From positions 4,335 to 68,334 of the forward strand of contig CAZISK010000001.1 in NCBI GenBank assembly GCA_964541355.1: a DNA stretch of 64,000 bases, read 5' to 3'. The stretch is from an uncultured Candidatus Obscuribacterales bacterium (GTDB lineage Bacteria > Cyanobacteriota > Vampirovibrionia > Obscuribacterales > Obscuribacteraceae). The translations under genes and the position numbers were made by a program. Position 1 is the first letter of the stretch; each line of letters begins with the position of its first letter. Below the pieces are notes generated by a model that saw nothing but the letters and a program-made list of their open reading frames with translations, did not search any database and was not told the origin of the DNA. Positions 8,709-26,686 of this stretch are shown here, piece by piece.

Positions 8709-9788
8709 TCACCCGGATTTTTCCCAATCGATTTGGTCGGAATGCTCTTCTCTTCCCAAGAACAGCACGTACTGTGGTTTTTTTGTGTTGTCAAACAGAT
8801 CACTGATCCCTTCAGTCAGGGGCCCGATTGCGTCAACCACGCGCTTAACTGGGTTGCGCCATGCGGGATTCGTAGCCAATAAATTCCGGGCCCAGTCAAA
8901 GTCGTTGCCTCGACTGTATAGATAGCGTCGGCTGTGCTTGAGCTGCAGCCTATTCAGATAATCAGCACCGTCAAGCGAGAGGTGTGTACAGTAGCCATCC
9001 ACCTTCTGCAGCGAGCTGAAATACTTGCGCTCAAAGAGAGAGAGCGTGACTGTTGGCGACAAGTTGCAAATGATTTGGATACCAGGTGACAGCAGTCCTT
9101 CACCGCTGATCAAACTGCTTGATTCATGCGGCAGGAGTATGACTGGTGTGTCGCACGTTACGAGTTCGCGGTTGGCGGATGTGCTAAAAAGCCAAATGTG
9201 TTTGGCTATCTCCGGAGCTGCTTCAAAGCCAGCGGTCAAGGTCATTAGCACGTGTTGTCCGGCTTGGCATTCTCGGCTTAGTTGAACATCAAAATCGTCT
9301 TCGTTCTGCAGCTCAATCCCAGCTCGTTCCATTTGCAGATTGGCCAGGACTCGGAGGCTGACTCGTGCAAGATTGATTAGACTCTCCCGCTGGTCTGGAG
9401 TTCGAAGATACTGAACGGCCAGAAAGAACGCAAGGCGTATACGATCCTGTTTATAGATCAGCCGCTTGTCGGACAATCTTTTCGGAGTCTTGCGAAGACG
9501 GAAGACTTCGGCTGCGCTAAGTATCGCTTCGATCACGGGTTGTCCTTGGGCCTCCACTTCCGTGAAAGCGCGCTCGCTAATCTGAAATCGCTCAGGAATT
9601 TGTGGATCGTGATCGACGGTTTTCATGTCGTAGAAATATTCCTGGCATGCCGTCTTGTTAATTGCATTCTCGAAACTTCTGTCCGTCTGCTTGTCGAACA
9701 CAAAGATCTTTCCCGGCTTGCTCGCGAATCGGGATAGACTTTTTTGCGGAAGAAAATGTTGCTTCTTCGTTTTCTGGCGATTCTTCAT
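8709..9788 (-). CDS. DUF4238-family protein
   Basis: 359 aa. The N-terminal KKQHFLPQKSLSRFA matches the H(F/Y)(L/V)PQ.yLr.F signature of DUF4238. It lies 20 nt downstream of the HNH gene on the same strand. Confidence 0.65.
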   Translation of the reverse strand: MKNRQKTKKQHFLPQKSLSRFASKPGKIFVFDKQTDRSFENAINKTACQEYFYDMKTVDHDPQIPERFQISERAFTEVEAQGQPVIEAILSAAEVFRLRKTPKRLSDKRLIYKQDRIRLAFFLAVQYLRTPDQRESLINLARVSLRVLANLQMERAGIELQNEDDFDVQLSRECQAGQHVLMTLTAGFEAAPEIAKHIWLFSTSANRELVTCDTPVILLPHESSSLISGEGLLSPGIQIICNLSPTVTLSLFERKYFSSLQKVDGYCTHLSLDGADYLNRLQLKHSRRYLYSRGNDFDWARNLLATNPAWRNPVKRVVDAIGPLTEGISDLFDNTKKPQYVLFLGREEHSDQIDWEKSG

Positions 9789-9808: not shown

Positions 9809-10906
9809 TCAGCCAATGACGCCAGCCATATTGGAAAAAATGTTGAACTCAGAGGTGCTGCCTAAACAGTACCGTGCGCGATCTTCTCTGTAAAAGACCT
9901 TCTTGACCAAATCAAACTGATGCCCAAATCCAAAGGAACGGCGATTGCCTGTTCGGAATGGATACACTGACAGATTTACTATGTACCGAAGGTGTCCAAC
10001 AAGGGACATCTCAGCCAGAATGCGGTTGTTACTTTCAAAGACTCGGACAATGTGAAACGGAATATGCGGACGGTCTTCGTGTCCCTTCATGGCGACGCCA
10101 TGATTCGTGACTGTCACCGGGTTTGATTCTGACCGGGAACGAATGAAGTCACGGATGGACTCATAGTCTTCATGGTACAGAATTTCGCCGAGTCCAGATT
10201 TGATAGTGCAAAATGCGAAATAGTTGAATGCGATTTTGGCAATGATCCGCATAATGTTTTGATCAAGTCGTCCCTCGAACTCACAGTCGAACACGCCATC
10301 TGAGTTTAGTTCCAACAGCTCCTGATTCGATTGTTGATAATTGATGCCGCGTTTGCGGAGTTCGGAAATTAGCTCACCAACCCCATCCTCTCCATGCGCG
10401 AAGATACTAATGGAAGAGCGCTCTGCTCCAGTCCATTTGATTCGGTCGGCAAAGCCTTTTGCATCCCGGACGCCTTTCAGAAAAATCATCTGGCAATGGC
10501 CATTCTTGCCCTCAATGACAATTTGAGGGGCAGGTATGGCCTTGCCAGTTTCTGGATCCAGCGTGGGAAACATCTGATCAAAGATCCGCTGTTCGCCGGT
10601 GATGCGATTCTTGAACTTCATGCGGTCCTTGCGAAATCGGATGGAAGAATCGTTCCGGAATTGATACTGGGCAGCGATGAAGCCCTCGACAGAATCTTCT
10701 TTGAAGAAGGTTTCCAGTTTGCTGAAACCGTTGTTGCACGTGTCGCACACCTCCAGCAAAATCAAACTAGTGGGCGTGAAAGTTCCCAACGATTGAGGTA
10801 TGACGTGTTCTCGTCCATTGAAAGGTCGATCTGATCGCAGACAATAGATACAACGCACGATGTCAGACCCTCCTTCCGTCAAGACCGCAGATGATGGTAT
10901 TCGCAC
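9809..10906 (-). CDS. HNH-endonuclease-domain protein with a large uncharacterised C-terminal region
   Basis: CIYCLRSDRPFNGREHVIPQSLGTF...VCDTCNNGFSKLE is a CxxC...EH(V/I)IP..LG...CxxCN HNH-type core. The likely true start is the GTG at 10856-10858, preceded by GGAAGGAGGG. Confidence 0.65.
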   Translation of the reverse strand: MRIPSSAVLTEGGSDIVRCIYCLRSDRPFNGREHVIPQSLGTFTPTSLILLEVCDTCNNGFSKLETFFKEDSVEGFIAAQYQFRNDSSIRFRKDRMKFKNRITGEQRIFDQMFPTLDPETGKAIPAPQIVIEGKNGHCQMIFLKGVRDAKGFADRIKWTGAERSSISIFAHGEDGVGELISELRKRGINYQQSNQELLELNSDGVFDCEFEGRLDQNIMRIIAKIAFNYFAFCTIKSGLGEILYHEDYESIRDFIRSRSESNPVTVTNHGVAMKGHEDRPHIPFHIVRVFESNNRILAEMSLVGHLRYIVNLSVYPFRTGNRRSFGFGHQFDLVKKVFYREDRARYCLGSTSEFNIFSNMAGVIG

Positions 10907-11445: not shown

Positions 11446-11673
11446 TTAGCGGAAACAGATATCTGTGTCCAAAGAGCAGTTTCGTTGTATTGAGTAACTG
11501 TTCTTTTTGATGAGATGCGCAATCCCGCTCCGAGTGAGCATGATGCGCTGTTCGATACGAACCACTGGCAGTTTGCGTTGTTTGATCAACCTGCGAATTG
11601 TGTGTTCAGACATATAGAGTAGCTGTGCTGCATCACGAACGCTATAGAGCTGAAGGTTGTTTGCATCTGTCAT
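11446..11673 (-). CDS. excisionase/MerR-type helix-turn-helix DNA-binding protein
   Basis: MTDANNLQLYSVRDAAQLLYMSEHTIRRLIKQRKLPVVRIEQRIMLTRSGIAHLI. The y.v.eaA..L.vs..ti.rli..g.lp pattern fits excisionase-family HTH. ATG 11671-11673 is preceded by GGAGG. The ORF track extends to 11748. Confidence 0.65.
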   Translation of the reverse strand: MTDANNLQLYSVRDAAQLLYMSEHTIRRLIKQRKLPVVRIEQRIMLTRSGIAHLIKKNSYSIQRNCSLDTDICFR

Positions 11674-12062
11674 GGCGACCTCCAGGTGTGTATGTATGGG
11701 CGGTGATTCACCGCGCACATTATTAGAAGAGCGTGTCCGATGCACCACATGCGGTGCTATGCCGGTCTATCTTGATAGCCGAAAATCAAACACGATGAAT
11801 TAGGGAAAGTGGTTGGGAATGGTCATCAATCTGTGAAAAAGTGACCCTGAACAAAAACGAGGCTAGCCGTGTTTAGCTGGCCTCGGAGGAAGTGCATCGA
11901 GCATTATATTCATCATATCGATGGTTACGAAAAACGCACCATAGGGAAAACCCTGACAATCTGCGATGGGTTCAGACTTCAATTGATATTGGTTGTAAGG
12001 CATCACTTAAGCTTCCTGATACACTTAGGGGGTTCTGATTGTTCGTGTGTGAGGAAGTGGGA

Positions 12063-12485
12063 ATGAATTATTGGCTACTTTGCTTGCCAAGAGAAGACTT
12101 GGAGCATTGTATGCGGCAGGGAACCTTCGGACTGGAGAGAAAGTACATTCTCGGGCAGGTTTCGAAAGGCGATCCTGTGGTGTGTTGCGCAGGGAAGGGT
12201 GACTGGAAGATCATCGGACTTGGTTCCGCAACAAGTGACTATTACGTAGGCGATTCCAAGATATTTTTGAAAGAAGGCTACTTCCCGGATCGTTTTGACT
12301 TCAGCACAGAAAAGTTACCGAATGATCTGGAGATCGATATCAAGTCAATATTCGATCGTTTGAGCTTTGTCACAAACATCGCGTATTGGCCGGTGTTCTT
12401 TCGTAATGGAATAGCCAAAATGTCGCGGCAAGACTGGGAATTGATCTCCGAGAAGACTAGCGATTCTGCGGCGCACCGAAAGTAG
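12063..12485 (+). CDS. PUA-like (EVE/ASCH-type) domain protein
   Basis: MNYWLLCLPRED...GTFGL...GQVSKGDPVVCCAGKGDWKIIGLGSATSDYY. An N-terminal (N/K)YWL followed by GD.vv.y.....ivG.g is the usual EVE/PUA-like pattern. RBS gaggaag lies upstream. It converges on the SNF2 gene. Confidence 0.45.
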   Translation: MNYWLLCLPREDLEHCMRQGTFGLERKYILGQVSKGDPVVCCAGKGDWKIIGLGSATSDYYVGDSKIFLKEGYFPDRFDFSTEKLPNDLEIDIKSIFDRLSFVTNIAYWPVFFRNGIAKMSRQDWELISEKTSDSAAHRK

Positions 12486-12580: not shown

Positions 12581-15304
12581 TTACCAAGGTGCGGAAAGCC
12601 GATCCACTACGTCTCGTCGTGATAGCACTCTAGAGCAAAGTTCCCAGCGGTTCTTATCAGGATCTATCGTTTCCTGATAACGGATCTCGAACACATCGCG
12701 TGCTTGTTGCCGGAGGTGAATGTACTTATCCATCATTTCGTCGAGTTTTTCCTCGGTGTCGATCCAATCATCGTCGATTGTGTCTGGCATGCCGCCCAGA
12801 ATGTCGTAGCGGTCCTTCATGCGTTTCGATAGAACGCGATACACTTTCTCATCCTGGGTATCATGGTATACCAGGTTCAGCATGTCCACCGTTCGGCGAG
12901 CTTGACCAAAACGCTTGATCCGTCCAAGACGCTGTTCCAATCTGGACGGATTCCATGGGAGATCGACGTTGATCAGTGTGCCGAGAGTTTGAAGGTTCAA
13001 TCCTTCGCAAGCCGCGTCGGTCGCTACAAGCAATCTAAGCTCGCGCTTCTTAACCGCCGCCTTGATGTCTTCTCGTTCCACTGACGCGAAGTCCCCGTCT
13101 CGGAATATGACGCTCTTGCCCGTTCCGGCATAGACGGCCACTGGCACACCATCCAGTACTTTGGCCAACTCCGAACCAAGTGAAAACGCAGTATCATAGT
13201 ACTGACTGAAGATTATGCATCCGTGTTCTAACCATGTCCTGCCCTCGGTGCGGTGTTCCGTAAGAAAGTAGCGCACTGCAGCGGTCTTCGGATCTCTAGC
13301 CTCTGGTCTGGAAAGTTCTTCGACAATGGTTTTTAAATGCTCGCTTTCCGCCGCACCGAGGTCTTTCAAAATTTCGCCGAGGAGCTTTGATTCGTCTTCA
13401 CCCTCAAGAATGTCTTTACGAAGGAGTTTCTCCGCGGTAGAGCGGCCTGACGCGAAGCTTGAGCAGATTCTTTGCAATAGCAGCGTCTTCATGAAACCGG
13501 CCCCTTTCTTGCCTTGTTTCTTCAGCGCATCAGTGAAATCCTCTGCTGCTTTATAGGCAAGATCGAATGGGTGGTTCGTCAACAATCCCTGCCCAGCAAA
13601 ACTTACTCCTCGGTACGCGGTAGCGGGTGCATTCGGATTGGGGTGAATGTCCACTGCAACTTTCTCCAAAAGTCCCATTTCTTCTAAGGTGCTGCGTCGG
13701 CGAAGTACTGTGTGTCGAAGAACTGGATTGTGCTCCCGTAAAAATCCGGGAGCCATAGCGAAACTTACAGCCTGTTGCTCCAACAGTCCCAGCGAACCGA
13801 ATCCTCTATCCGTAAAAAATGTTTGATCAGACAAGCCGAGCTGAAGCCTCAACTGTGCGAAGAGAGCATCTTCATTACCCGGTGGAATTGGATCGCGCAG
13901 CCATTCCCAAGCATCCTTCTCATCCGACGGCGATTCGTCACCCTTCACGACAGGGAGTGCCCTTTGCCAGTCTTGCCAAAGTCCTGTATGGCGTCGACCT
14001 AGCACGAACTCAGCACCACCATTGAGAATATGCAACAGATCCCACAGTTCCCGTACTTCTGTTTGGATTGGAGTTGCAGTTCCGAGAAGCAAATTTTTTG
14101 TTTGATGTCCGAGCAACAGCATGAACTCTAACAAGTTGTTGGGCTTATCTTTCTTGTCGCCGAGCCCTCCACCACGTCTAGCTTTGTGTGCCTCGTCCAA
14201 CACAACCGTACCGTATTTTCTTTCGAGAAGGTTCTGAGCTTCTTCAGAACCGTGGACAATTAGGCCGGTTGATACGATGGCAATAGAGAATGGACAATGC
14301 TTTACGTCAACCGCACCGCGCGTCTTTATAGCGTGTCCCTTGGGATCGATCCACTCTTTCTTCCCCGAGGACCACACGGCACTAGGAATGCCGAGCCTAT
14401 CAAAAAGTTCTACCTGCCATTGGAATTGCAATGTTGATGGGCACAGAATGAGAACGGGACCATCCTCTAGCAGAGCGGACATCATAGCGCTTGCGGCTAA
14501 AGAAAGGGTCTTTCCGACACCAACTTCATCGGCAAGCAGCAGTCGGACTTTCCCATAAGTTTCACGATGCTCCAGAAACATTGTTACGAAGGACCGTTGC
14601 CATGGCTCCAGTTGTTCGCCACCTCTATAAATTGGGCTCTCTGCCAGCGCTGCGGCTGGTAAATCTTTGGCATTGGTCTGTTCGAAACGGATTTCTACAC
14701 GTTCAGCTACGCGCTTCACTTCTTCTATGATGGCTTCGGGTAGCGGATAAGCATCCTTCCATAGCGCGTCGAATTCCTCTTCAACCCACGCAATGCCTTC
14801 GGCAGATCTATCCTCCCAGAGAATTTCGTAGTTCTGCGCAAAGGCGCTTTTGGTTTCATTTATTGAACCGAGAAAACATGTTTTCTCGCCATTTGCACAC
14901 TCGATAACACCGGCTTTGCCGTGGATAAAAACACGATCCTTTGGCACTACGCGAATCTCGACACGGCCGCTAGTGAGAAGCTCATAAAGCTTTCGATAAC
15001 GTTCTCGATGCAACAGGGCTTCCACTTCTGCTGGTGCTTCGTTCCATTTCTCCTTTAGAGCGACCTCTTGCACGTGCTTCGAAATTACTATGTCAGCCGC
15101 ATCCAGTTCGCTGTTGCATACAATCTGAACCTTAGGAATTGATGCGATTTCTTCGCCAACTAATTCGAAGATCGAGCTTCGAAAATATCCGGCAATTCGG
15201 CGGTAAGATCTCGCAGAACTCAATTTGGCACTCAGGAATGCGCGATCAAGTCGCTCTCGTCGGGAGGAAAAGCGTTGGATGTCCGTTAGCCCGCGCTGCG
15301 TCAT
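12581..15304 (-). CDS. SNF2/SF2 helicase with an N-terminal PLD-like (HKD-type) nuclease domain
   Basis: 907 aa. N-terminus: FIHGKAGVIE...FLGSINETKS (HxK...GSxN). Helicase motifs: LLADEVGVGKTLSL (I), VVLDEAHKAR (II, DEAH), LLGTATPIQ (III), LVATDAACEGLNLQ (V), NVDLPWNPSRLEQRLGRIKRFGQ (VI). Confidence 0.9.
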   Translation of the reverse strand: MTQRGLTDIQRFSSRRERLDRAFLSAKLSSARSYRRIAGYFRSSIFELVGEEIASIPKVQIVCNSELDAADIVISKHVQEVALKEKWNEAPAEVEALLHRERYRKLYELLTSGRVEIRVVPKDRVFIHGKAGVIECANGEKTCFLGSINETKSAFAQNYEILWEDRSAEGIAWVEEEFDALWKDAYPLPEAIIEEVKRVAERVEIRFEQTNAKDLPAAALAESPIYRGGEQLEPWQRSFVTMFLEHRETYGKVRLLLADEVGVGKTLSLAASAMMSALLEDGPVLILCPSTLQFQWQVELFDRLGIPSAVWSSGKKEWIDPKGHAIKTRGAVDVKHCPFSIAIVSTGLIVHGSEEAQNLLERKYGTVVLDEAHKARRGGGLGDKKDKPNNLLEFMLLLGHQTKNLLLGTATPIQTEVRELWDLLHILNGGAEFVLGRRHTGLWQDWQRALPVVKGDESPSDEKDAWEWLRDPIPPGNEDALFAQLRLQLGLSDQTFFTDRGFGSLGLLEQQAVSFAMAPGFLREHNPVLRHTVLRRRSTLEEMGLLEKVAVDIHPNPNAPATAYRGVSFAGQGLLTNHPFDLAYKAAEDFTDALKKQGKKGAGFMKTLLLQRICSSFASGRSTAEKLLRKDILEGEDESKLLGEILKDLGAAESEHLKTIVEELSRPEARDPKTAAVRYFLTEHRTEGRTWLEHGCIIFSQYYDTAFSLGSELAKVLDGVPVAVYAGTGKSVIFRDGDFASVEREDIKAAVKKRELRLLVATDAACEGLNLQTLGTLINVDLPWNPSRLEQRLGRIKRFGQARRTVDMLNLVYHDTQDEKVYRVLSKRMKDRYDILGGMPDTIDDDWIDTEEKLDEMMDKYIHLRQQARDVFEIRYQETIDPDKNRWELCSRVLSRRDVVDRLSAPW

Positions 15305-18300
15305 CCGAGCCTCTGATTCTTAACAAGTTCACAGAGAACTCGTGCAGAGCTTGCTTCATCTGGGCGAATTACATCAAGTCTTTTCGCAATATAGTCTGCA
15401 AGCTCAACGACAAGCTCGCGCTGCGTCATATCCATATAGTAATCTGCCACGTTGAGCGTCAGATGCGAGAGCACGTCTCCGCCATCGATATTCTTTTGCA
15501 GTTCCATAACGGCGTATAGAACGGCACGTAGTACTGATTGATGGAGTTCCGAACCTTCACTCATCTCTGAGCGGCCAAACTCGGTTGCGCTTCGTAGTCT
15601 TGCGTTATTTGCCTTATAGCTGGCAAGGAGAGGTTTGAAGTCTCGAACCTTGAACGCCTTCGCGAAGTTTTGGTAATTATCCAATGTCTTGGCACCACGT
15701 GCTTCCATATCGAGCATCTTTAGATAAAATCGTTCAGCGGCACGGAGCTTGTCCCAATGGAATTTTGGAATGCCTTGTGGCACGAGACACTGGTTCGCTG
15801 TGTCAACAGCAAAACCGATAAGTCCATCAACAAATGTAGTCTCCCCTTTGATTCGTGGGCGGATCGCCTCCGCTGACATGTCTCGACCATCAATAATTGC
15901 GTAACGTGTAAGGACTCGTAGAGCAGCGGCGTATCCGGCCATCTGGATATCGGCATCCTCGAATACGTTCTCATCGCGATAGAGACTTTTTGCGCTCTGG
16001 CTGAGACCGGTCAGTGCCTTAACTTGATTCTCCACTTCTTCTTGAATCTCCCAAGCAAGATCATCTCGCGTCGTTTTATGCATGCCCTGACGCTTTCGCA
16101 AGACCAGAATTACGGTACCTTTTACGTGACTACCATCACGCAACGCGCTTTCTGTTTCGGTGACAACGTACCAGGCTGCGGTGACACGTAACCCGGACGC
16201 CCAGACAATATTAGCCATATCTGCCCAGATTGAGCCAGATTGGTGCGTAAACATGATGACCTGAATTCCATTATCCGGCATACACTCAGTCATTCGTTTG
16301 TAAGCCGACACCATGTTGCGCCGAAAATCTTCGCCCTCTCCTCTTATGGCAAGCGCGCGTCGGCTGTCCCAAACCCAGTCGGCGAATTCTGGAGCTGTAT
16401 TCTTGCGCAACCAAGCTATGAAAAATTCCAGGATTTCGTCGTACCTTACCGCATCACCATAAGGTGGGTCCGTCACATAGAGTTCATTTGTTATTGCCAA
16501 CTGTTCTGCGGAATGGGAGGAAATCTTGCTTGAGATAGAAGGATCTAGAGGAAAGGTTTTGTAATCCGCATCAGCAATATCGAGTGCATAACGCATGCCA
16601 CGACATCCGTAGTTGATGAGCGTATTGAGTGCTTGATTGTCGAATGCACCGGTGACCATTGCTGCGCCGCTGCCGCCGATCGTGAAGCGACTCAGCCGGG
16701 AATTACAATTAAGCACCCGAGCAAATCCGAGTTTTAACTCTGCCTGAGTACATTGATTCAATAATCCCGCAACCAGCAATTGTCGAGGATTGAACAAATG
16801 ATGCCAATGCGTCCAGCCGCGCTCTCTATATAGGCGATCGGTTTCATCACCAGGTTCAATTCGCATATCTGGAATCCAGCCTTTGCTCTGCCAATCAGCC
16901 AGATTGTCGGCGATGAATTTTTCTACAATGCGTTCGCGCTCCAAGTCGTTTTCAGTTATTGTTCGGACCTCATATTCCTCACCGCGCCCACCGGCACTCG
17001 GCCGCATCCACTGAATAGCGTATAGCCGCTCTTGAAAAAGGTCACTTGTTCGTGGCATGAAATCGCTTTTTTCCCATAGCCGCAGTTTATTGCCCATGGA
17101 ACCATCGGCCGAACGATACTCACCGCGTAAGGTAGAAAGTTTAGTTCTATACTCAGTGCCATGCACGTTATGAATCAGATATGGATCTTGACCCCGCCCG
17201 TCACTTTGAACGGTGCCTTCTCGGGCCTTTTCCATATCCGCAGGGGAAACACCAGTACGAATTAGAATTTCGTAGCGCTTGTTTTCCGGGTCGGGTATCA
17301 GTTCTAGAACAATAGATCTGACTCTGTTGAGGACTCGATTAGGAAGCATCGGCACAAGCCATCCGGATTCAGGACATCGAACTTCATTACAGTACAAATA
17401 GATCTTGCCTCTCCATCCGTGACCGTCTGTTTCAATTCCCAATCGTGAAATCTCGTTCTCCACTCTCTCAATCATTTCACTTTGAGCAGTTTGAAGATTT
17501 TTTCGATGAATATCTGAACCGCCAACTATATTGAAGGCACCCCACGTGAGCATGCAGGCAACTGGATTTAGGTCAGAGGCATAGACGTCGCAGCCCAAGC
17601 GGGCCGCTTCAAATGGGATTTGTCCGGAACCGCAGAAAGTATCTGCGAAACGTGGACGATGTCCATATCGCATGATTCCGAGCTGCTCTCCAAGTTCTGT
17701 AAACGAAAAAGCATTGGTTCCGAGGTGCGAATTTACTTCCTCCCAAATGTGCTTGTGAACATCAAGAGGATCTTCTTCGGGCCTCTTCGATTCTTCTACG
17801 CGTTTGCGATAAGGCTGGGGAAGCATCTGTGCTTCCAGCTTTCTGCGAGTAGCATCGGAAAGATCGGAGCGCCATTCCACGGTGACATTTTCGTACTGGT
17901 CGTTGGACCAATCCACTGGTGCCGACAACGGGAGGACGTTGTGCGGCTGCACAGTAAAATAATCAGCGATGCGAGGTATCGTTAGGGCGCCAAGTATTTC
18001 TTTGGGTTTTGATCGCCGTTTCGATCGAGCCACAAAGGATTCGTCATCCATGCCCATCAACATTTCGAAGATTTCGAGGTCGCGCGCGGTGTTATCTGTG
18101 GCTGGCAATAGACAACCCAGTATGCATGCTTTATTTAGAATCAGCGGTTTGCGTCCCTTCCAATAACTCCCAAGCGCCGTCAGCGTTTTACCTGTGCCAG
18201 CCATTTGCTCTTTATACGCTTCAGCGGATAGTTTTTGGACTGGTAGAAATCGTTCTATAAGAGCTGGCGCGTCCTTTAAGGAGAGCGGCTTCACCAACGC

Positions 18301-18324
18301 TGTATGTTTAACTACAAGACTCAT
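15301..18324 (-). CDS. DUF1156-type (COG1743-like) DNA methyltransferase
   Basis: 1007 aa. The N-terminal PVQKLSAEAYKE...GKTLTALGSYWKGRKPL is DUF1156-like. SAM motif I is FADTFCGSGQIPFEAARLG, and catalytic motif IV is VTDPPYGDAV (DPPY). It has 4-nt overlaps with both neighbouring genes. Confidence 0.9.
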   Translation of the reverse strand: MSLVVKHTALVKPLSLKDAPALIERFLPVQKLSAEAYKEQMAGTGKTLTALGSYWKGRKPLILNKACILGCLLPATDNTARDLEIFEMLMGMDDESFVARSKRRSKPKEILGALTIPRIADYFTVQPHNVLPLSAPVDWSNDQYENVTVEWRSDLSDATRRKLEAQMLPQPYRKRVEESKRPEEDPLDVHKHIWEEVNSHLGTNAFSFTELGEQLGIMRYGHRPRFADTFCGSGQIPFEAARLGCDVYASDLNPVACMLTWGAFNIVGGSDIHRKNLQTAQSEMIERVENEISRLGIETDGHGWRGKIYLYCNEVRCPESGWLVPMLPNRVLNRVRSIVLELIPDPENKRYEILIRTGVSPADMEKAREGTVQSDGRGQDPYLIHNVHGTEYRTKLSTLRGEYRSADGSMGNKLRLWEKSDFMPRTSDLFQERLYAIQWMRPSAGGRGEEYEVRTITENDLERERIVEKFIADNLADWQSKGWIPDMRIEPGDETDRLYRERGWTHWHHLFNPRQLLVAGLLNQCTQAELKLGFARVLNCNSRLSRFTIGGSGAAMVTGAFDNQALNTLINYGCRGMRYALDIADADYKTFPLDPSISSKISSHSAEQLAITNELYVTDPPYGDAVRYDEILEFFIAWLRKNTAPEFADWVWDSRRALAIRGEGEDFRRNMVSAYKRMTECMPDNGIQVIMFTHQSGSIWADMANIVWASGLRVTAAWYVVTETESALRDGSHVKGTVILVLRKRQGMHKTTRDDLAWEIQEEVENQVKALTGLSQSAKSLYRDENVFEDADIQMAGYAAALRVLTRYAIIDGRDMSAEAIRPRIKGETTFVDGLIGFAVDTANQCLVPQGIPKFHWDKLRAAERFYLKMLDMEARGAKTLDNYQNFAKAFKVRDFKPLLASYKANNARLRSATEFGRSEMSEGSELHQSVLRAVLYAVMELQKNIDGGDVLSHLTLNVADYYMDMTQRELVVELADYIAKRLDVIRPDEASSARVLCELVKNQRLG

Positions 18325-18896
18325 GTCCGCTCCTTGAATAGTGGCAATTGAAGAAGATCGTTTTCGGCTGGTCGTCGTCTTCTTCTCCGCGACGGATTAG
18401 TCTCGCCTTCAGATAGCGCGAAGAAGAGTGCTCGTCGCCAGCCTCGATTTGTATCGCCTGGTAGACCGGACTCCGCTACAGTCATCGAGAACAACCACCA
18501 GCGTTCCTCAGGGCGGAGTGCTGCCCATTTGCTGCAAATTACTGGTAATTGTTCCGTTGTTGCGGTTTCCGCAGCCCATGCGAGCACGCACAATTCCTTG
18601 CCTAAGAGCCGATCCACGAGATTGGTGCCGATGTGCCATCGACCTGTAAGAATCTTTGCCGTCTTGAGCCTTTCGTTAAATTCGCGTCGCGAAGTATCTG
18701 CAATGATCGACCATATGGTTCGTTCAAGTATGACACGTTCCTCGTCCCGTGGGATACCGACTTCTTGCCCGCGGTAGCCATAGTCCTCAATGATCAGTAC
18801 GGGTTCGCTTCGTGCTGGAGGGATTTCGACGCGGAAAACGTGAGCTCCGAATTTATCAGGAGCCCCGAAGTCGACCGTCGTCTGTTTCTCGATCAT
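18321..18896 (-). CDS. DUF3780-like small protein
   Basis: 191 aa. Its size and its position between the DUF499 and DUF1156 genes match my recollection of the usual DUF3780 context. There are 4-nt overlaps on both sides. The C-terminal tail is basic (RRRRRP). Confidence 0.6.
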   Translation of the reverse strand: MIEKQTTVDFGAPDKFGAHVFRVEIPPARSEPVLIIEDYGYRGQEVGIPRDEERVILERTIWSIIADTSRREFNERLKTAKILTGRWHIGTNLVDRLLGKELCVLAWAAETATTEQLPVICSKWAALRPEERWWLFSMTVAESGLPGDTNRGWRRALFFALSEGETNPSRRRRRRPAENDLLQLPLFKERT

Positions 18897-21800
18897 TGAT
18901 CGACGTCTCCTGCAACCAGTTCGATTCCGAGTTTAGTTGCAAAATCCTTTAAATCGTGTCCTGAGGCAAAACTCGATTTGCGAAACGTCATTGTGACTGG
19001 CGTGTCCGGCTTGAATCTTTCCAAAACCTTCACGAGCAACGATTCAATGAATATTGCGTCTACTTCAATATCACCCACACTCACGGCGATCATCTGATTC
19101 CCTTGACCGACAGTCAAATTCACACCTTCGAATGTAGCTGCTCTATCGGCCGCATGTTTCAATCCTTCGAAGGTTTTGCTTCGAGAATCAAGTTTGCGTC
19201 CAGAGCGCGAAACCAGCCTGGCAGGCTTCACGTCATCGACGTGAACACCCTTCTTCCCCTTGGCCGGGAATCGAAAGTCTTCCTTGGTTTCAAGTCCGTC
19301 AGCTGAGGCAAACGCGCGAAGCAATACCTCTTCTTCATCATTTATTCCGATGGGGCCGGTATAAGGTGTGCCTTCACGAGGCTCACTTCCGTCAAGCGTG
19401 TAACGTATTTCTCCTCGCGGTACAACCGACAGTTCCACGGTTCGTTTGCCGTCCTGCTCCGCCAGTTCATTCCTTAACACTAGGCGGTTGCTCCAAGTGA
19501 CAGGATCGCCTGTTTCATATTGTCCCGATAGGTCGCATACAAGAAAACTTACGCGCAACGCGGTGGTAGATAACTGGTTGTCTTTGAGATGGGGACAAGA
19601 TTCCGACACGGGACCATCTTCTGCATATTGAATTCGCGGAGCAGGTCCCGCATTTTGCGGATTCACTCGTAAGCGCACGCAGCCTGCGTCATCCGGACCT
19701 GTCTCAGGAATCACTTGTGCCGAAGTCCGTTTTTTCTTCGGTTTCTTTGTGACGTAACCGTTGCCTAGATCCTCCCACAATCCTCGATTGCACGCGATGG
19801 ATCGGAGTGTCTCAAGTCCCTTGGGCGGTAGCCACGGCATACCTGCTTGTTCGGTATAACGATCAATCACATCAGACCAACGAGCTTCATCTTGGTTTTC
19901 CGGCCATAGAAGGTCCTGTGCTTTGTCTATAATTGCGTCGAAGTCCTTCTCAACATCGATGTACAGTTTTAACGGGTTCGACGTTAACGTCTTTTCGATT
20001 TGTTCTTCACCATTGAAGGCTTTGGTGGCATCGCGAGTCATATCGAGCGCTTTCGGAGCAAGCATGGAAGGCTTACCAGATCGTTGGATAGGGAAAAGAA
20101 CTTTATCGAACAAGTTCAGGACAGTGGAATTGAAGTCTTGTTCGTACGTCTGTTGCTTTCTTTCGAGATCCTCTCGTTGCGCGTGACCCTTTGGGATTCG
20201 CCCATCCGCTTTTTGTGCTGCAAAAAGCTGCCGTGCGGCTTTTTCTACGCTACCCATCGCAGTCTTGTCACCAGTGAGCACGCACAGATTGTTTTTCTGA
20301 GTTAACCCATCGAAAAATTTCTGTACCTCATCTGGAGGAATCTTCGAGTCGGGGCTAACGACGAGCAACGTGCGCCCTTTCCTGACCCTATCAGCGACTT
20401 CTTCTAATTTGGGAAGAGGTAGGACGTCTTCATAACAAGACTTTCGCGACGCCTTGAACATGTCCCGTAGCCGGTGGCGAATTAGATCGTCAACCATATT
20501 TTCAGGGGCATCCTGCGCAAGACTTTGCAGAAGCTTGGTTAGATTTTCTTGTCGGTCAAAATAGTAACGTCCTTCGGAATTATGGTGGATGTACCAGGCT
20601 ATTTTTTCCAATTCTTCGAAAGCTGCAAGAAATTCCGATGGCTCTCTAAGCGGCGACACCAGGCATTCGACCATTTCTTCACGAGTCAGTCCCTTTACTG
20701 AATTGACTGCTGTGGACAAACTCGCGGTGAGAAGGAGCGAGCCAACCTGAGTCGCCGCTTCCTTTCCGGTTTGCAAGTCAATTACCTGGGCGTGCGAGGA
20801 TTGCTGACCATCCCACAAGTCCTTTGCTATAACATCGCGCATCCCAGAGATCTCTGTCAGTTTATCGCGCACGTCCGGAATGGACAGATCGAAGTGCTGC
20901 GGGCCGATGAGAAAGACATCGTTCGCTTGCCGTTCCCATACTGATTTCAGCAATCGCGATACCAATTCAATAAGTCCTCGCGTCTGCTTGAATTGCTCAT
21001 TCTCTTTGAATAGCGCGATGACATTTTTCAATCGCGGATGGAACGGGTATGTGGCGAAAACTTCGTCGGCGATCGCTTCAGCACCACGATGTGCGGTTTT
21101 GGATTTGGCGGCTTCTTCCAACTTTCGTCCAAAGGCGTCAGCAATGTCTTCAATTTCGGCCTTTTGCGGAAGTGACTTGAACAGCCGTTTGCGCAGAATG
21201 TCATAGATTTCGTTTGCTGCAAGATCTACCGGCGTAATATTCCGTTCCTGACGGCCGACTTCCGCACGAGCATCTTCTAGCGCACGATTTATCAGTTTGG
21301 AACCTGTGTCATAGGCCGCTGCAAGATCGCTAACAACAACGCAAACATTCTTCTTCTTGCCGGCTGCTGTAAGCAGATTCGCGAAGGCTCTAGTGGCTAT
21401 GTCGGCTACAGTGCCGTTTCCTACTTTCTGTGTATCAAGATAGTGGAAATAAGGTGGGAGTTCGTCCAGCAGAATAAGCACTGGCTGATCACCATCGAAA
21501 AGTTTGAGCCAATCCTTCTCGTCTGGCGCCTGCGGACCACTCGTCCAAAAGCCTTTGAATTGATCTCCCTTACCGAGCTGAGTGGCAATCTCTCCCCAGA
21601 AGAAGTTGTTTGGATTGTTTCTCCCGTTGAATGCTGCTATTTCCGCTTTGTCGAAGGACTCGGCGTGGGCCATGCCAGCGCAATACTTTGCTCGCAGTTT
21701 CCAATGACGCGCCAGAAGACCGAATCCAACCAGGAGGTGCGTTTTACCTCCTCCCATCGCCTGCTTCAGGTGAAAGATCGCTTGCGACGAGTTTCCGGAT

Positions 21801-21979
21801 AGCCTGGCTATGCCCTCCACGATCAGATCTTTCATGCCTTGCGTGATGTGGGTCTTTTCGAAGAAGGCCGAGCCATCCCCTTCTGCAGAGATGAGCTCAT
21901 CGAGTTGCTCGATTTGATCGCTAAGTTTGATGGATATCGCATTATCTTGAATTACGCATGCATCACGGACGGTTTTCAT
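18893..21979 (-). CDS. DUF499-type (COG1483, BrxC/PglY-like) P-loop ATPase
   Basis: 1028 aa. Walker A is MGGGKTHLLVGFG and Walker B is PVLILLDELPPYF. The C-terminal part has two (I/R)xY..DG(S)xP beta-sandwich-like motifs. It is the first gene of the four-gene operon. Confidence 0.85.
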   Translation of the reverse strand: MKTVRDACVIQDNAISIKLSDQIEQLDELISAEGDGSAFFEKTHITQGMKDLIVEGIARLSGNSSQAIFHLKQAMGGGKTHLLVGFGLLARHWKLRAKYCAGMAHAESFDKAEIAAFNGRNNPNNFFWGEIATQLGKGDQFKGFWTSGPQAPDEKDWLKLFDGDQPVLILLDELPPYFHYLDTQKVGNGTVADIATRAFANLLTAAGKKKNVCVVVSDLAAAYDTGSKLINRALEDARAEVGRQERNITPVDLAANEIYDILRKRLFKSLPQKAEIEDIADAFGRKLEEAAKSKTAHRGAEAIADEVFATYPFHPRLKNVIALFKENEQFKQTRGLIELVSRLLKSVWERQANDVFLIGPQHFDLSIPDVRDKLTEISGMRDVIAKDLWDGQQSSHAQVIDLQTGKEAATQVGSLLLTASLSTAVNSVKGLTREEMVECLVSPLREPSEFLAAFEELEKIAWYIHHNSEGRYYFDRQENLTKLLQSLAQDAPENMVDDLIRHRLRDMFKASRKSCYEDVLPLPKLEEVADRVRKGRTLLVVSPDSKIPPDEVQKFFDGLTQKNNLCVLTGDKTAMGSVEKAARQLFAAQKADGRIPKGHAQREDLERKQQTYEQDFNSTVLNLFDKVLFPIQRSGKPSMLAPKALDMTRDATKAFNGEEQIEKTLTSNPLKLYIDVEKDFDAIIDKAQDLLWPENQDEARWSDVIDRYTEQAGMPWLPPKGLETLRSIACNRGLWEDLGNGYVTKKPKKKRTSAQVIPETGPDDAGCVRLRVNPQNAGPAPRIQYAEDGPVSESCPHLKDNQLSTTALRVSFLVCDLSGQYETGDPVTWSNRLVLRNELAEQDGKRTVELSVVPRGEIRYTLDGSEPREGTPYTGPIGINDEEEVLLRAFASADGLETKEDFRFPAKGKKGVHVDDVKPARLVSRSGRKLDSRSKTFEGLKHAADRAATFEGVNLTVGQGNQMIAVSVGDIEVDAIFIESLLVKVLERFKPDTPVTMTFRKSSFASGHDLKDFATKLGIELVAGDVDQ

Positions 21980-22449
21980 CGAGTCACTCCCAAACTGTGT
22001 TACCTGTGATGTTCATATCACCCCTCGGCAATTGCATTTAAGCCTGATGTGGTAACTGGCGGGTTGCCAACGGGGCGAAGTGTTCTTGACGGGGGCACGA
22101 TCCAAGCCATACATTATCTAATAAGATCAGCCTATGTTCCAGCGTACGGGACGCGGCTGCAGAATACGCGCATTTAGCCCCAATGAGGTTCTCCGAGGAA
22201 AGACTGCAACGAGCAGCGCTTGGCATCGTCCGGTGTGTTACTGCCACCGCATTCGGTGGCAACATGGAATTGCGCAGTTCTTGAATTTGTCGCGATTGGC
22301 AGAAAAGCTGAGTTTCCACGAATCTCCGGATGTTGTCCATGCTGTTGACTGGTATGCGTTGACGTTTATCCATTCTGGGGTCTATATGGGGTCCAGCCCA
22401 GAAAACCTCCCCCAAAAAGAAAACCGCCTTTCGGCGGAAACGTAGATGA

Positions 22450-22504
22450 TGGGCGAGGTGGGACTTGAACCCACACGTATTGCTACACTAGATCCTAAGT
22501 CTTA
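22450..22504 (-). tRNA. 3' fragment (~55 nt) of tRNA-Leu(UAG), not an intact gene. Right copy of the att repeat.
   Basis: The reverse complement reads TAAGA-CTTAGGA-TCTAG (anticodon arm, anticodon TAG, G37), then TGTAGCAATACGT (long variable arm, GTA/TAC stem), then GTGGG-TTCAAGT-CCCAC, then CTCGCCC-A. No complementary GGGCGAG 5' acceptor strand or D-arm follows. Confidence 0.65.
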
Positions 22505-22619
22505 TGAGTAGCCTTGTACGGCGTTGTAATGAGTTGTACGAGCGTAGGGCTTTAATTAACAAAAGTGGCTGATCATGGGCATTTCAGGGCTTGATGTTTT
22601 GTATTCTCTTGGATACACT

Positions 22620-22811
22620 TGTAATTACTACGACAGGTAAATGGTCGTTTATTGGTCGTTTGTTTGATGACTGCACGAATCGTGAAATTCAAATCTATCT
22701 GTTTTTTGCTGTAACTACTGTGACTATTGTAACTACGCCCAGCCGGTGGGGCTTTCGAGACTATACAACTGTAACCACGACTGGGACCACGGAAGAAAAA
22801 CTGTAACCATG
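22620..22811 (+). promoter_or_regulatory. cluster of short direct repeats (candidate arm-type integrase/Xis binding sites) between the att repeat and int
   Basis: TGTAAYYAY-type 9-mers occur at 22620, 22710, 22719 (TGTGACTAT), 22728, 22770 and 22802. The three at 22710-22736 are contiguous, and the last overlaps the int ATG. TGGTCGTTT also occurs twice (22642-22650, 22653-22661). Confidence 0.4.
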
Positions 22812-24071
22812 AAAGTAAAACTCACCCAAGAATTTGTCGAATCCGACCTTGCGCCCGGAATGTACCGAGACTCTGGACACCCGCGGGCACAAAGCGGGTT
22901 TGCTCTCAAGGTCACACCGGCCGGCACCAAGGTATATCTAGTCGATAGCAAGGTCCGAGGCACCCGAAAAAATGTCACGGTCACTATCGACAAGCATCCG
23001 ACCATCTCGTGCAAGGATGCTCGGGATCGCGCAAAGGAAATCTTGGCTCTGCTTCATCAGCGCGTAAATCCAAACGAGCTTGAGCGTGAGGAGCAACGCA
23101 AAGAACAAAATGAGGCGGCTGAGCGTCTCGATCAGAAGCGAGTGGCAGAGCTGACGATCAGAAAGGTGTTTGCAGAGTATGTGGTCTCCAAAAAGCTCAA
23201 AGCAAGCACTGCGTATGTTTATCAATGCGATTTGTTCAAATGCCTTTCGGACTGGCTCGATAAGCCAATGTCATCAATCACTAAAGAGATGGTGGAAAAA
23301 CGACATAGAAAGGTAAGCGAGGAGCACGAAGGACAAGCAAACCATGTAATGCGGATTCTCAGAGCGCTGTTCTATTACGCCATGGGCACGTATGAAGACA
23401 GAGAAGGTAAACCATTGCTTACTCAGAATCCGGTAAAGCGCCTCTCTCAAATCAAGGCATGGAATAAACTTGATCGCCGCCAAGACATCATCGATGATCA
23501 GGACCTTCAAGCCTGGGCAAAAGCTGTTCTCTCACTAAGGAACGATGCTGTGCGTGATTACATACTGTTGATGCTATTTACTGGCTTGAGGCGCGACGAA
23601 GCAGCCAAGCTAGAGTGGCGAAATGTCTCCACCCGCAAAAGAACATTCACCGTTACTGATACCAAAAACGGACAGTCTCACACCCTGCCGATGTCGGATT
23701 ACCTCTACGCATTATTCAAGCAGCGAGAAGCAACCCGTACAGGCTCGTATGTGTTTCCGGGCAGGGTATCACCACACCTGAAGGATTGCAGAGCGCAATT
23801 CGCGATGGTGACCGAGGAGAGCGAAATCGAATTTACACCGCACACGCTCAGAAGAACGTTCACGACAATTGCAGCGCGGATGCTTCCGGACTATGTGGTG
23901 AAGCGATTGACGAACCATATTGATGGAGCCGACGTGACCCAAGGCTATGTGGTCGTTGAAGTGGAGAAACTGAGAGAACCGATGCGCATGATCTCAGAAC
24001 ATATCCTCACCCATGCGAATCTGAAAACAGCGGAAATCTTGGAATCATCGAAGGTGGTCCAGCTAGCTTGA
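22809..24071 (+). CDS. int: tyrosine integrase with an N-terminal DUF4102-type arm-binding domain
   Basis: MKVKLTQEFVESDLAPGMYRDSG...GFALKVTPAGTKVYLV is the P4-type integrase N-terminus. The catalytic region has LFTGLRRDEA, HTLRRTF, LTNH and DVTQGY. The ORF track starts at 22746. Confidence 0.9.
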   Translation: MKVKLTQEFVESDLAPGMYRDSGHPRAQSGFALKVTPAGTKVYLVDSKVRGTRKNVTVTIDKHPTISCKDARDRAKEILALLHQRVNPNELEREEQRKEQNEAAERLDQKRVAELTIRKVFAEYVVSKKLKASTAYVYQCDLFKCLSDWLDKPMSSITKEMVEKRHRKVSEEHEGQANHVMRILRALFYYAMGTYEDREGKPLLTQNPVKRLSQIKAWNKLDRRQDIIDDQDLQAWAKAVLSLRNDAVRDYILLMLFTGLRRDEAAKLEWRNVSTRKRTFTVTDTKNGQSHTLPMSDYLYALFKQREATRTGSYVFPGRVSPHLKDCRAQFAMVTEESEIEFTPHTLRRTFTTIAARMLPDYVVKRLTNHIDGADVTQGYVVVEVEKLREPMRMISEHILTHANLKTAEILESSKVVQLA

Positions 24072-25585: not shown

Positions 25586-26686
25586 ATGCAACAGCAACGA
25601 AACCCCAAGCTAGCGGCAAGGGGTTCGGGTAAGAGTTTCAGCGCTCATTATTCTAACCTAAATGCCCAGAAAGTCAAAGATGCTGCCGTCGGTCGGTGGT
25701 ATGCCATCCTTGTCAGGTTGGGTGTTGACTCTGCCAGTTTGACGGGCAAGCATTCACCGTGCCCCATATGTGGTGGCAAAGACAGATTTCGGTATGACAA
25801 TCGCGAAGGCCGCGGCACCTTTATATGCAACGGCTGCGGATCTGGCGATGGTTGGACGCTGCTTATGCGTCTGCATAATTGGAACTTCACGCAAGCTGTT
25901 GAAGCTGTGGCTGGCACTTTTGGATTGGATTCAGAAGTGACGGTTTTGCCGCCAAAGCAGGCAGAGCCGACGGTGAGCCCGTTCCAATCCGAACGAAACA
26001 AGAAGCGACTGAGCCGGTATTACAAAGGTTCAAAATGGACGACAGAAATAGATGTGGTTGGGAAATATTTGCACTCGAGAATACCAGGACTAGACGAGCA
26101 AGTGTTCAGAAACAAAGTGCTTAGAACTCATGAACGTCTTCCCTACTTCCGTACTTCCGGACAGCAACCCATCCTGATGGGCAAGTTCAATGCATTGTTA
26201 GCAATCGTCAGCGCCCCTTGCGGGAAGCCAATCACAATGCATCGACTTTGGCTTGATAAATTCGGTAGAAAACTAAAGCTTATTGACCCTGAGCAGTTTG
26301 GCGCTTACCTTCCTTCAAGGAAATTGCTCCCACCAGAGATCGAAGGCGCCGCCAGGGGTGGTGCAATTCGGCTATTCCCCTGCGGCCCGGTTCTCGGCGT
26401 AGCTGAAGGACTCGAGACAGCCCTAGCCTGCTATACAGCGACAAAGATTCCCACGTGGGCAACGATTAGCGCTGCCGGCATGGCATCACTAGTGGTGCCC
26501 GCCGATGTGACTGAGGTGGTCATTTTTGCTGACAATGACGAAAACAGCGCGGGGCTAAAGGCAGCCAGGAAGTTGGCGAGCAGGCTAATCGCTGAAGGGC
26601 GGACGGTTCGAATCGTAATGCCGGACTTCGTCGGCACTGATTTCGCAGACGAGTATTTGGGAGAATTCGATGAAACGTCATCCTAG
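25586..26686 (+). CDS. P4-alpha-type zinc-binding plus Toprim primase
   Basis: HSPCPICGGKDRFRYDNREGRGTFICNGCGSGDGWTLLM is the P4 primase zinc ribbon. LGVAEGLETALA...VVIFADNDENSAGLKAARKLA carries the Toprim E and DxD motifs. Confidence 0.85.
   Translation: MQQQRNPKLAARGSGKSFSAHYSNLNAQKVKDAAVGRWYAILVRLGVDSASLTGKHSPCPICGGKDRFRYDNREGRGTFICNGCGSGDGWTLLMRLHNWNFTQAVEAVAGTFGLDSEVTVLPPKQAEPTVSPFQSERNKKRLSRYYKGSKWTTEIDVVGKYLHSRIPGLDEQVFRNKVLRTHERLPYFRTSGQQPILMGKFNALLAIVSAPCGKPITMHRLWLDKFGRKLKLIDPEQFGAYLPSRKLLPPEIEGAARGGAIRLFPCGPVLGVAEGLETALACYTATKIPTWATISAAGMASLVVPADVTEVVIFADNDENSAGLKAARKLASRLIAEGRTVRIVMPDFVGTDFADEYLGEFDETSS

Follow-up and report, generated by a model that had tools for sequence, protein, structure and literature searches.

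A four-gene operon on a tRNA-Leu island of a Candidatus Obscuribacterales bacterium is very probably an intact member of the MANTIS (Gao_RL) anti-phage family

Four minus-strand genes found between positions 12581 and 21979 of the window (the whole 64-kb stretch of DNA analysed here) form an operon, mtsABCD, that is an ordinary copy of an already catalogued methylation-based anti-phage system. The data make it very probable that this is an intact member of MANTIS (Gao_RL/Gao_29; Type-2, DUF499-centred BREX-related), to which the mechanism described for this family can be carried over by orthology. According to a citation in a preprint of 24 Sep 2026 (bioRxiv 10.64898/2026.09.23.753747), the gene set was tested as anti-phage by Gao et al. 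2020; it was given the class name "Type-2 BREX-related" by Rakesh and Krishnan (NAR 2026; PMC12839542) and was renamed MANTIS, with genes MtsA-D, in the same preprint. The first-pass annotation had rightly described the set as flagged in defence surveys; the precise family is Gao_RL/Gao_29, and its remark that no mechanism was described has since been superseded by the preprint. The four genes are as follows:

18893-21979, minus strand: mtsA, 1028 aa, DUF499 AAA+ (ORC/Cdc6-clade) ATPase
18321-18896, minus strand: mtsB, 191 aa, standalone DUF3780 protein
15301-18324, minus strand: mtsC, 1007 aa, DUF1156 N-terminus and N6-adenine methyltransferase
12581-15304, minus strand: mtsD, 907 aa, PLD nuclease fused to an SNF2-type SF2 ATPase

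Family assignments were examined with Pfam, with NCBIfam equivalogs and their curated cut-offs, and with PADLOC models. All four products scored over their full length above the NCBIfam cut-offs, with 1497.5 bits for MtsA against NF042962 (cut-off 1200), 235.6 bits for MtsB against NF042961 (cut-off 200), 1276 bits for MtsC against NF042963 (cut-off 1000) and 1205.6 bits for MtsD against NF042964 (cut-off 1100), each of these models carrying the name "anti-phage-associated". Dedicated PADLOC models (PDLC02192, 02191, 02189 and 02193 for MtsA, MtsB, MtsC and MtsD, respectively) also gave full-length matches with E = 0. HMM support had been named beforehand as a check on the DUF499, DUF3780 and DUF1156 calls; these and the PLD-SNF2 helicase call are upheld by the three resources, and together with the motif positions and the conserved gene order (see below), these matches argue for membership in MANTIS. 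The operon can thus be annotated automatically by curated equivalog HMMs and carries little weight as a discovery. The core order DUF499 ATPase, DUF3780, DUF1156 methyltransferase and HKD-helicase is present on one strand and includes the standalone DUF3780 protein (MtsB), a component specific to Type-2; a standalone DUF3780 gene and a helicase that bears its HKD nuclease at the N-terminus have been described as the defining synapomorphies of Type-2 and not of Type-1 (PMC12839542).

In MtsA, Pfam detected DUF499 as well as CHB_HEX_C_1 and Fn3_assoc at aa 844-897, a region corresponding to a C-terminal, FnIII-like beta-sandwich (ca. aa 844-897); FnIII-like domains preceding the C-terminal domain of MtsA are optional and occur in 53% of Type-2 systems (PMC12839542). 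Walker A (GGGKTH, with K79) and Walker B (LLDE within LLDELPPY, with D172/E173) are invariant across 57 orthologues. MtsB matched DUF3780 (Pfam, 2e-70) and ends in a basic C-terminal tail (RRRRRRP...LPLF); it has 4404 homologues, the best 120 clusters listed being 74-86% identical to it, exact self-match aside. An AlphaFold2 prediction for MtsB, based on an alignment of 21 sequences, was too poor for a fold search (pLDDT 46.5); it agrees with the published fold only in the order of its elements, four strands and then five helices, to which a short C-terminal helix is added. MtsB of MANTIS has been described as a dimer lacking any structural homologue. MtsC has a DUF1156 N-terminus (Pfam) and carries motif I (FCGSG, 230-234) and motif IV (DPPY, 619-622), in between which an entropy profile delineated a hypervariable TRD insert (ca. 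256-610). Finally, MtsD combines PLDc_2 (26-182) with SNF2-rel_dom and Helicase_C in Pfam; a single HKD (H128-x-K130, then GS146xN148) is located in its N-terminal part, its motor contains GVGKT (K265), DEAH (370-373) and motif VI (790-801), and H128, K130, K265 and DEAH are invariant across 46 orthologues. PDB sequence and profile searches returned no match for MtsA, MtsB and MtsC; for MtsD they retrieved nothing but generic SNF2 motors.

All four ORFs start with ATG and are linked by 4-nt ATGA overlaps at the three junctions (18893-18896, 18321-18324 and 15301-15304), with a Shine-Dalgarno-like GGGAG, AGGAG, AAGGAG or AGAGG located 5-13 nt upstream of each start. The ORFs and the motifs cited in the first-pass annotation were all confirmed, and its view of a single translationally coupled operon holds for the compact operon, in which the ATGA overlaps probably couple translation, but not for a tight mtsC/mtsD coupling as a feature of the family. 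Upstream of mtsA, no sigma-70 promoter stood out convincingly above what chance would give, and the signals from a scan for promoters and terminators were no better than those of shuffled sequence. Internal inverted or direct repeats that could indicate a switchable TRD were sought across the operon and not found.

A survey of 80 loci indicated that the order A-B-C-D is common to all complete related loci, which come from many phyla (47/47), in line with the co-conservation that had been named as a further check. The 4-nt overlap occurs at A/B in 53/63 and at B/C in 44/61 related loci and, considered with the constant gene order, argues that the arrangement is not due to chance. The mtsC/mtsD overlap, on the other hand, is rare (1/51 relatives), and accessory genes are inserted between mtsC and mtsD in 31 of 51 relatives, which speaks against tight coupling of these two genes as a family trait. 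The survey thus depicts a tightly coupled MtsA-B-C module to which the effector MtsD is loosely attached, and this fits the published split between a recognition-methylation module and an effector. In the relatives the catalytic residues are invariant, and variability clusters in the insert that separates motif I from motif IV of MtsC, a conservation pattern that is consistent with specificity being encoded by MtsC. Since the TRD of MtsC is divergent, with 51% identity to E. coli MtsC, the recognition site is presumably different. Orthologues in other phyla show 68-80% identity to this copy, which is devoid of frameshifts. Apart from a single NCBI contig, the exact mtsABCD proteins turned up solely on short Logan contigs, and near-identity DNA searches retrieved nothing from E. 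coli genomes, plasmids and phages.

In the P. aeruginosa model (bioRxiv 10.64898/2026.09.23.753747), MtsA uses ATP to load the methyltransferase MtsC, with MtsB in a putative helper role, MtsC hemimethylates asymmetric 6-bp sites and unmodified DNA is restricted by the MtsD PLD-helicase with a preference for inverted site pairs; in vitro reconstitution of cleavage by MtsD is still awaited in that model. By orthology, the AAA+ ATPase MtsA of the present operon would load monomeric MtsC on unmodified asymmetric sites of ca. 6 bp, the choice of which would be set by the central TRD of MtsC; an MtsB dimer would boost transfer of the methyl group and MtsA would hydrolyse ATP to reset the complex for turnover, the predicted N6-adenine hemimethylation of host DNA acting as the self mark. 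On unmethylated invading DNA, site-bound MtsABC would license a dimeric MtsD, expected to combine two SNF2-type motors with a single composite PLD active site, which would translocate along the DNA and cut it, best between inverted site pairs. We infer that mtsABCD is expressed and active in its host.

MtsR, an Arc/CopG-type repressor encoded upstream, is optional and is reported in "some operons" (bioRxiv 10.64898/2026.09.23.753747). No plausible small ORF for MtsR occurs within 21980-22745, and no conserved MtsR-like ORF was found among the 51 relatives examined; four small ORFs located upstream in relatives cluster as HTH_17-like and the one checked by HMM (L045) is indeed HTH_17. Because MtsR is absent in this clade and all three junctions are ATGA, including the rare mtsC/mtsD one, translational coupling may substitute here for transcriptional repression, fixing the MtsC:MtsD ratio against autoimmunity. 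This compact, MtsR-less MANTIS variant is a possible comparator for specificity and regulation.

The mtsABCD operon is carried by an 18.4-kb tRNA-Leu island whose integrase has decayed, with the following landmarks:

4050-4087, minus strand: att repeat copy 1, matching copy 2 at 37/38 positions; other end of the 18.4-kb island
4082-4962, plus strand: integrase pseudogene of the MANTIS-bearing island, N-terminal ca. 135 residues missing, frameshift near 4498
22447-22484, minus strand: att repeat copy 2, 3' end of a tRNA-Leu gene, fragment only

Copy 2, which is accompanied by a terminator-like hairpin (22424-22437), marks the end of the MANTIS-bearing island that is distal to the integrase, as well as its junction with the next island. 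In 17 of the 20 metagenomic loci scanned, the att core coincides exactly with the 3' end of intact tRNA-Leu genes, and an intact integrase (22746-24071) matches the pseudogene with 39% identity in two frames (tblastn, E = 5e-55). An exact junction search of metagenomes for the empty att site gave 0 matches; the att repeat core alone likewise gave 0 in viral contigs, and matches were obtained only with a shorter tRNA core. Rfam and tRNA scans of the 64-kb window returned nothing, and no homologue was found for a neighbouring ORF of 1422 aa.

Placed tail-to-tail with mtsD is a divergent HTH_17/EVE-like gene pair, and the same pair elsewhere adjoins BREX and Druantia-like cargo. The EVE-like ORF was considered as a fifth MANTIS component and rejected, as it is absent in the 44 related loci having sequence downstream of mtsD. 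The pair may be the signature of a defence hotspot with exchangeable content, in which its PUA-like reader might work together with whichever DNA-modification-based system is inserted. Both proposals, that overlap coupling takes the place of MtsR and that the pair marks a hotspot with a cooperating reader, are speculative and rather unlikely.

Membership in MANTIS was weighed against other known systems. The first-pass annotation had pointed to a Hma-type classification, and PADLOC models for HmaC, HmaB and HmaA do match the operon in part (8.8e-55, 1.1e-21 and 4.8e-36), the ATPase, methyltransferase and helicase cores being homologous across BR types (PMC12839542). These partial matches are, however, far weaker than those of the dedicated Gao_RL models (full length, E = 0), while the presence of a DUF3780 gene and of a nuclease of the N-terminal HKD type are Type-2 traits, and neither a TUDOR nor a C-terminal PD-(D/E)XK domain was detected by Pfam in MtsD; that the operon is itself a Hma (Type-1 BREX-related) system, rather than a relative of this sister Type-1 system, is thus extremely improbable. 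We give just as little credence to a variant of BREX type 3, DISARM or Type ISP/III/IIG restriction-modification. Partial matches of the helicase to DrmD, BrxHI/HII and DpdE models and of the methyltransferase to PglXI could point that way, as could the asymmetric-site hemimethylation that MANTIS has in common with BREX and Type III/ISP (bioRxiv 10.64898/2026.09.23.753747), but the DrmD equivalogs reach only 166 and 126 bits on MtsD (cut-offs 610 and 950), over the helicase core only, and the BrxC model gave no PADLOC match to MtsA at E <= 0.01. Moreover, no PglZ, BrxA/B, DrmA/B/C, Res or S subunit occurs in the operon, confirming the initial description of a methyltransferase and a motor-nuclease without PglZ or S subunit, and PglZ, BrxA and BrxB had no match in the scanned neighbour genes either.

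Because the island carries a dead integrase, truncated and frameshifted, the operon could also be a silent or decaying passenger, perhaps no longer expressed or functional, and the lack of MtsR and of a convincing sigma-70 promoter beyond chance upstream of mtsA would be in keeping with this. Against it, the four ORFs are full length with every catalytic residue intact, and the identity to orthologues in other phyla (68-80%) comes with zero frameshifts; since loss of methylation with an active MtsD would be toxic in the MANTIS family (bioRxiv 10.64898/2026.09.23.753747), partial decay would be selected against. Such a passenger therefore appears quite unlikely, and an intact MANTIS operon is the reading retained here.

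Compared by description, the MANTIS of Pseudomonas aeruginosa AZPAE15024 shares with this operon the four proteins, their order and their domain architectures, with nearly equal residue numbers (K80/E174 versus K79/E173 here; DPPY at 621 versus 619) and H122/K260 in MtsD versus H128/K265 here. There too, each MtsD carries one HKD and the TRD of MtsC is where variability is concentrated. The P. aeruginosa system differs by the presence of MtsR upstream (MtsR-MtsABCD), whereas the present operon has no MtsR and is fully overlapped, including at C/D. The E. coli Gao_RL system (for example that of NZ_CP019250, 151341-160557) is collinear over its full length, receives the same four names from PGAP and shows 56%, 55%, 51% and 59% identity for MtsA, MtsB, MtsC and MtsD, respectively. 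Its MtsC lacks a segment of ca. 45 aa in the N-terminal domain (aa ca. 131-170 here) and diverges across the TRD. Directly upstream of the E. coli mtsA lies a small HTH gene of the excisionase family, and its junctions are a 1-nt overlap (B/C) and a 3-nt gap (C/D) instead of 4-nt overlaps. According to the preprint, the proteins of an E. coli variant listed in REBASE are >99% identical to those of the system tested by Gao et al. 2020 (bioRxiv 10.64898/2026.09.23.753747).

Hma (Type-1; HmaABC, with HmaA of Halomonas meridiana tested) has a homologous DUF499 ATPase, DUF1156 N6-methyltransferase and Swi2/Snf2 helicase-nuclease, but no DUF3780; its helicase bears an N-terminal TUDOR and a C-terminal PD-(D/E)XK domain instead of the N-terminal HKD, and its ATPase is often fused to HEPN (PMC12839542). 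BREX types 1 and 3 resemble MANTIS in their asymmetric 6-bp hemimethylation, in a BrxC AAA+ protein related to DUF499 and in methyltransferase-directed specificity. Unlike BREX, mtsABCD has no PglZ, BrxA, BrxB or BrxL, MtsC is a group-alpha methyltransferase where PglX belongs to group gamma, and MANTIS has an explicit PLD-helicase nuclease effector with inverted-site preference (bioRxiv 10.64898/2026.09.23.753747). Finally, SauUSI (Type IV, PDB 7CLG) gave no sequence-level match to MtsD in PDB searches; it combines, as does MtsD, an N-terminal PLD nuclease with an SF2 motor, and a SauUSI-like dimer with one composite active site has been reported for MtsD (bioRxiv 10.64898/2026.09.23.753747). 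SauUSI is nevertheless autonomous, with its own TRD, and acts on modified cytosines, whereas MtsD, which lacks a TRD, follows MtsABC and attacks DNA that is unmodified.

Four minus-strand ORFs were found in the window at exactly the coordinates proposed by the first-pass annotation, running from 21979 down to 12581:

18893-21979, minus strand, mtsA, 1028 aa
18321-18896, minus strand, mtsB, 191 aa
15301-18324, minus strand, mtsC, 1007 aa
12581-15304, minus strand, mtsD, 907 aa

The three junctions, which had been described as 4-nt overlaps, are each of the ATGA type, and a Shine-Dalgarno-like purine run precedes each start within the upstream gene. The motifs previously quoted were all recovered, with GGGKTH and LLDELPPY in MtsA, DPPY in MtsC (together with FCGSG) and, for the HKD and DEAH motifs of MtsD, H128-x-K130...GSxN, GVGKT and DEAH. 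No internal repeats or inversions were detected in the operon.

Pfam searches matched MtsA to DUF499, MtsB to DUF3780, MtsC to DUF1156 and MtsD to PLDc_2, SNF2-rel_dom and Helicase_C. The four proteins also gave full-length equivalog matches to NCBIfam NF042962, NF042961, NF042963 and NF042964, all above the curated cut-offs, three of these families being named "anti-phage-associated" and the fourth a PLD-like "anti-phage protein". A search against the PADLOC models returned end-to-end matches for four dedicated ones (PDLC02192, 02191, 02189 and 02193), while matches to the PADLOC Hma, DrmD, BrxH, DpdE and PglX models were limited to common catalytic cores. The DUF499, DUF3780 and DUF1156 assignments are thus upheld by HMM searches, the earlier domain calls being correct in all three collections, and the operon is very probably a member of the MANTIS family.

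This system is already known and has a published name, classification and mechanism, where the initial annotation named no described mechanism (PMC12839542; bioRxiv 10.64898/2026.09.23.753747). Exactly the architecture of the window operon has been reported by Rakesh and Krishnan (NAR 2026) under the name "Type-2 BREX-related (BR) system"; it occurs in 1120 taxa, and its hallmarks are a standalone DUF3780 gene and an N-terminal HKD nuclease on a Swi2/Snf2 helicase (PMC12839542). In the same work, "Hma" is said to correspond to DUF499-centred systems, the tested HmaA having the Type-1 helicase-REase architecture. The Hma classification mentioned at first therefore needs correction: since the standalone DUF3780 and the N-terminal HKD define Type-2, the operon is the sister type of Hma and strictly not Hma. 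A preprint of 24 Sep 2026 gave the name MANTIS, with components MtsA-D and an optional MtsR, to the system of Gao et al. (Science 2020) that was formerly designated Gao_RL or Gao_29 (bioRxiv 10.64898/2026.09.23.753747). In a Pseudomonas aeruginosa system, the asymmetric 6-bp site CAACAC undergoes N6-adenine hemimethylation, a reaction that depends on MtsB, on MtsC and on both the binding and the hydrolysis of ATP by MtsA. For restriction, the whole set MtsA-D is required and inverted pairs of sites are favoured; swapping the TRD loop of MtsC switches the specificity of both activities. MtsD is dimeric, has a single composite PLD site and resembles SauUSI; in vitro reconstitution of its cleavage has yet to be achieved (bioRxiv 10.64898/2026.09.23.753747). 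The text of this preprint prints "DUF3870" for MtsB, though it cites the BR paper; the Pfam family matched by the MtsB of the window is DUF3780.

Related loci were collected by a scan with an MtsB alignment, using one genome per GTDB species, and the best 80 of the 161 confirmed loci were compared. These 80 span, among many lineages, Burkholderiales, Syntrophales, Verrucomicrobiota, Planctomycetota, Acidobacteriota (Terriglobales, Bryobacterales), Chloroflexota and Nitrospirota. Co-conservation of the genes in other genomes was borne out, with the A-B-C-D order found in 47/47 of those loci that have four complete genes. Across phyla, identity of complete genes to the window was 72-84% for MtsA, 69-81% for MtsD, 63-75% for MtsC and 70-80% for MtsB, and such strikingly high values imply frequent or extensive, recent horizontal transfer of the MANTIS genes under strong constraint. 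For MtsA, MtsB and MtsD, identity was 69-84% between Pseudomonadota, Verrucomicrobiota, Planctomycetota, Chloroflexota and Acidobacteriota hosts (related loci L002-L081). The Walker, DPPY, HKD and DEAH residues are invariant in the related loci, and sequence entropy concentrates in MtsC, at aa ~95-200 and above all at ~256-610 between motifs I and IV. This pattern is the one predicted by the published model if MtsC alone sets specificity.

Among the same best 80 of 161 loci, the 4-nt overlap is kept at the mtsA/mtsB junction in 53/63 and at mtsB/mtsC in 44/61, and occurs at mtsC/mtsD in just 1/51. Extra genes lie between mtsC and mtsD in 31/51 relatives and between mtsB and mtsC in 16/61, as follows:

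between mtsC and mtsD, SLFN_AlbA_2 and HATPase_c_4 proteins (14 loci)
between mtsC and mtsD, DarT with a macro-domain DarG (5 loci)
between mtsB and mtsC, YhcG/DUF1016 PD-(D/E)XK nucleases (8 loci)
also inserted, PIN toxins, AAA_14/DUF4143 proteins and DUF3800 proteins

Loci L033, L036, L038 and L065 are examples with such in-operon genes. These insertions agree with the BR paper's "auxiliary and backup effector" observations (PMC12839542); the window operon is the compact form, without any of them. We infer from this gene organisation that MtsA-B-C may be tightly co-expressed as one module for recognition and methylation, to which MtsD is more loosely attached.

Tail-to-tail with mtsD lies a conserved, genuine gene that adjoins a divergent gene; it has 135 homologues, a few of them with an EVE-domain (PF01878) match:

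12063-12485, plus strand, EVE/PUA-like ORF
11446-11748, minus strand, HTH_17 (AlpA/excisionase-like) gene

A fifth MANTIS component at 12063-12485 was considered and rejected, as relatives of this ORF are absent from 44/44 related MANTIS loci having sequence downstream of mtsD. The pair recurs in other contigs (L083 7030-8423, L084 6827-8220, L086 7377-8432), where its neighbours are a BREX system or a Druantia-like DruE/PDDEXK/UvrD set, and beyond the pair no backbone common to the window and these contigs was found. We read the ORF and its HTH_17 neighbour as a mobile-element or hotspot marker and not as part of MANTIS; the pair may mark an exchangeable defence hotspot.

The operon is the terminal cargo of an 18.4-kb island whose own integrase has decayed. 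A 38-bp direct repeat (37/38 identical) represents a tRNA-Leu gene's 3' end, and in 17/20 metagenomic loci examined the repeat core coincides with the 3' end of an intact tRNA-Leu gene; no intact tRNA was found within the window, and it is placed outside. After each repeat, on the same side in both cases, comes a P4-type integrase gene, and the window therefore holds two tandem islands:

4050-4087 and 22447-22484, the two repeat copies
4082-4962, integrase of the MANTIS-bearing island, a frameshifted pseudogene (39% identical, ~135 N-terminal residues missing)
5043-5927 and 5927-6298, minus strand, M78-peptidase gene (PADLOC capP match, 3e-35) and HTH_3 gene
7513-7950 and 7890-8486, minus strand, two overlapping DUF488 genes (PADLOC candidate models PDC-M45C and PDC-M45B, 2e-68 and 1e-52)
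8709-9788 and 9809-10906, minus strand, DUF4238 protein and 365-aa protein with an HNH_5 domain, beside the DUF488 genes
22746-24071, intact P4-type integrase of the next island
25586-26686 and 26670-27734, primase and DUF927 helicase of the next island, which also has HTH_56 genes

The GC content of the island is indistinguishable from that of its flanks. No credible small ORF for MtsR, an Arc/CopG-type repressor, occurs in the window between mtsA and the repeat, nor was a conserved MtsR-like ORF found in relatives of the window's clade. The M78-peptidase/HTH_3 pair resembles the CapP/CapH regulators of defence systems and, like the DUF488, DUF4238 and HNH_5 genes, is carried on the MANTIS-bearing island.

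Elsewhere in the window, two overlapping plus-strand ORFs (29570-31804 and 31804-36072) encode G/Q/A-rich proteins of 744 and 1422 aa, with a normal coding codon-position signature and a local GC of 0.53 vs ~0.49 elsewhere. Neither matched Pfam, NCBIfam, PADLOC or PHROGs, and zero homologues were returned when the 1422-aa ORF, as sole query, was submitted to a homology search. A 1417-aa NACHT-domain protein (36789-41042, minus) has partial, sub-cut-off matches to the antiphage EruA and HyoA models and is followed by a 235-aa protein (36069-36776, minus) with a partial PD-Lambda-3_A match. Other mobile-element or defence-like genes, all on the minus strand, encode a tyrosine recombinase (41430-42716), a serine recombinase (43302-44240), an SLFN_AlbA_2 protein (45313-46344) and a small PLD-like (HKD) protein (47950-48801). 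A 45-nt direct repeat in two copies, 76% identical and 78 nt apart start to start, lies at 50646-50768 within ORF 50571-50969. Finally, a 138-aa ORF (59011-59427, plus) has a match to ribosomal protein L7/L12 in its C-terminal half, scoring 62 bits against TIGR00855, whose cut-off of 84 it does not reach; such a match is odd in a region otherwise wholly accessory.

No feature of the window copy departs from the family enough to surprise a specialist. By residue number, its catalytic residues lie 1-11 positions from their counterparts in the P. aeruginosa model system, with K79 and E173 for K80 and E174 (MtsA Walker A and B), 230 for 241 (MtsC motif I), 619 for 621 (MtsC DPPY) and H128 and K265 for H122 and K260 (MtsD PLD His and Walker A Lys). 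A related system occurs in 32/5,426 complete E. coli genomes, where PGAP gives the same four names as those of the families of the window proteins; the two systems are collinear over their full length, with 56% (MtsA), 55% (MtsB), 51% (MtsC) and 59% (MtsD) identity.
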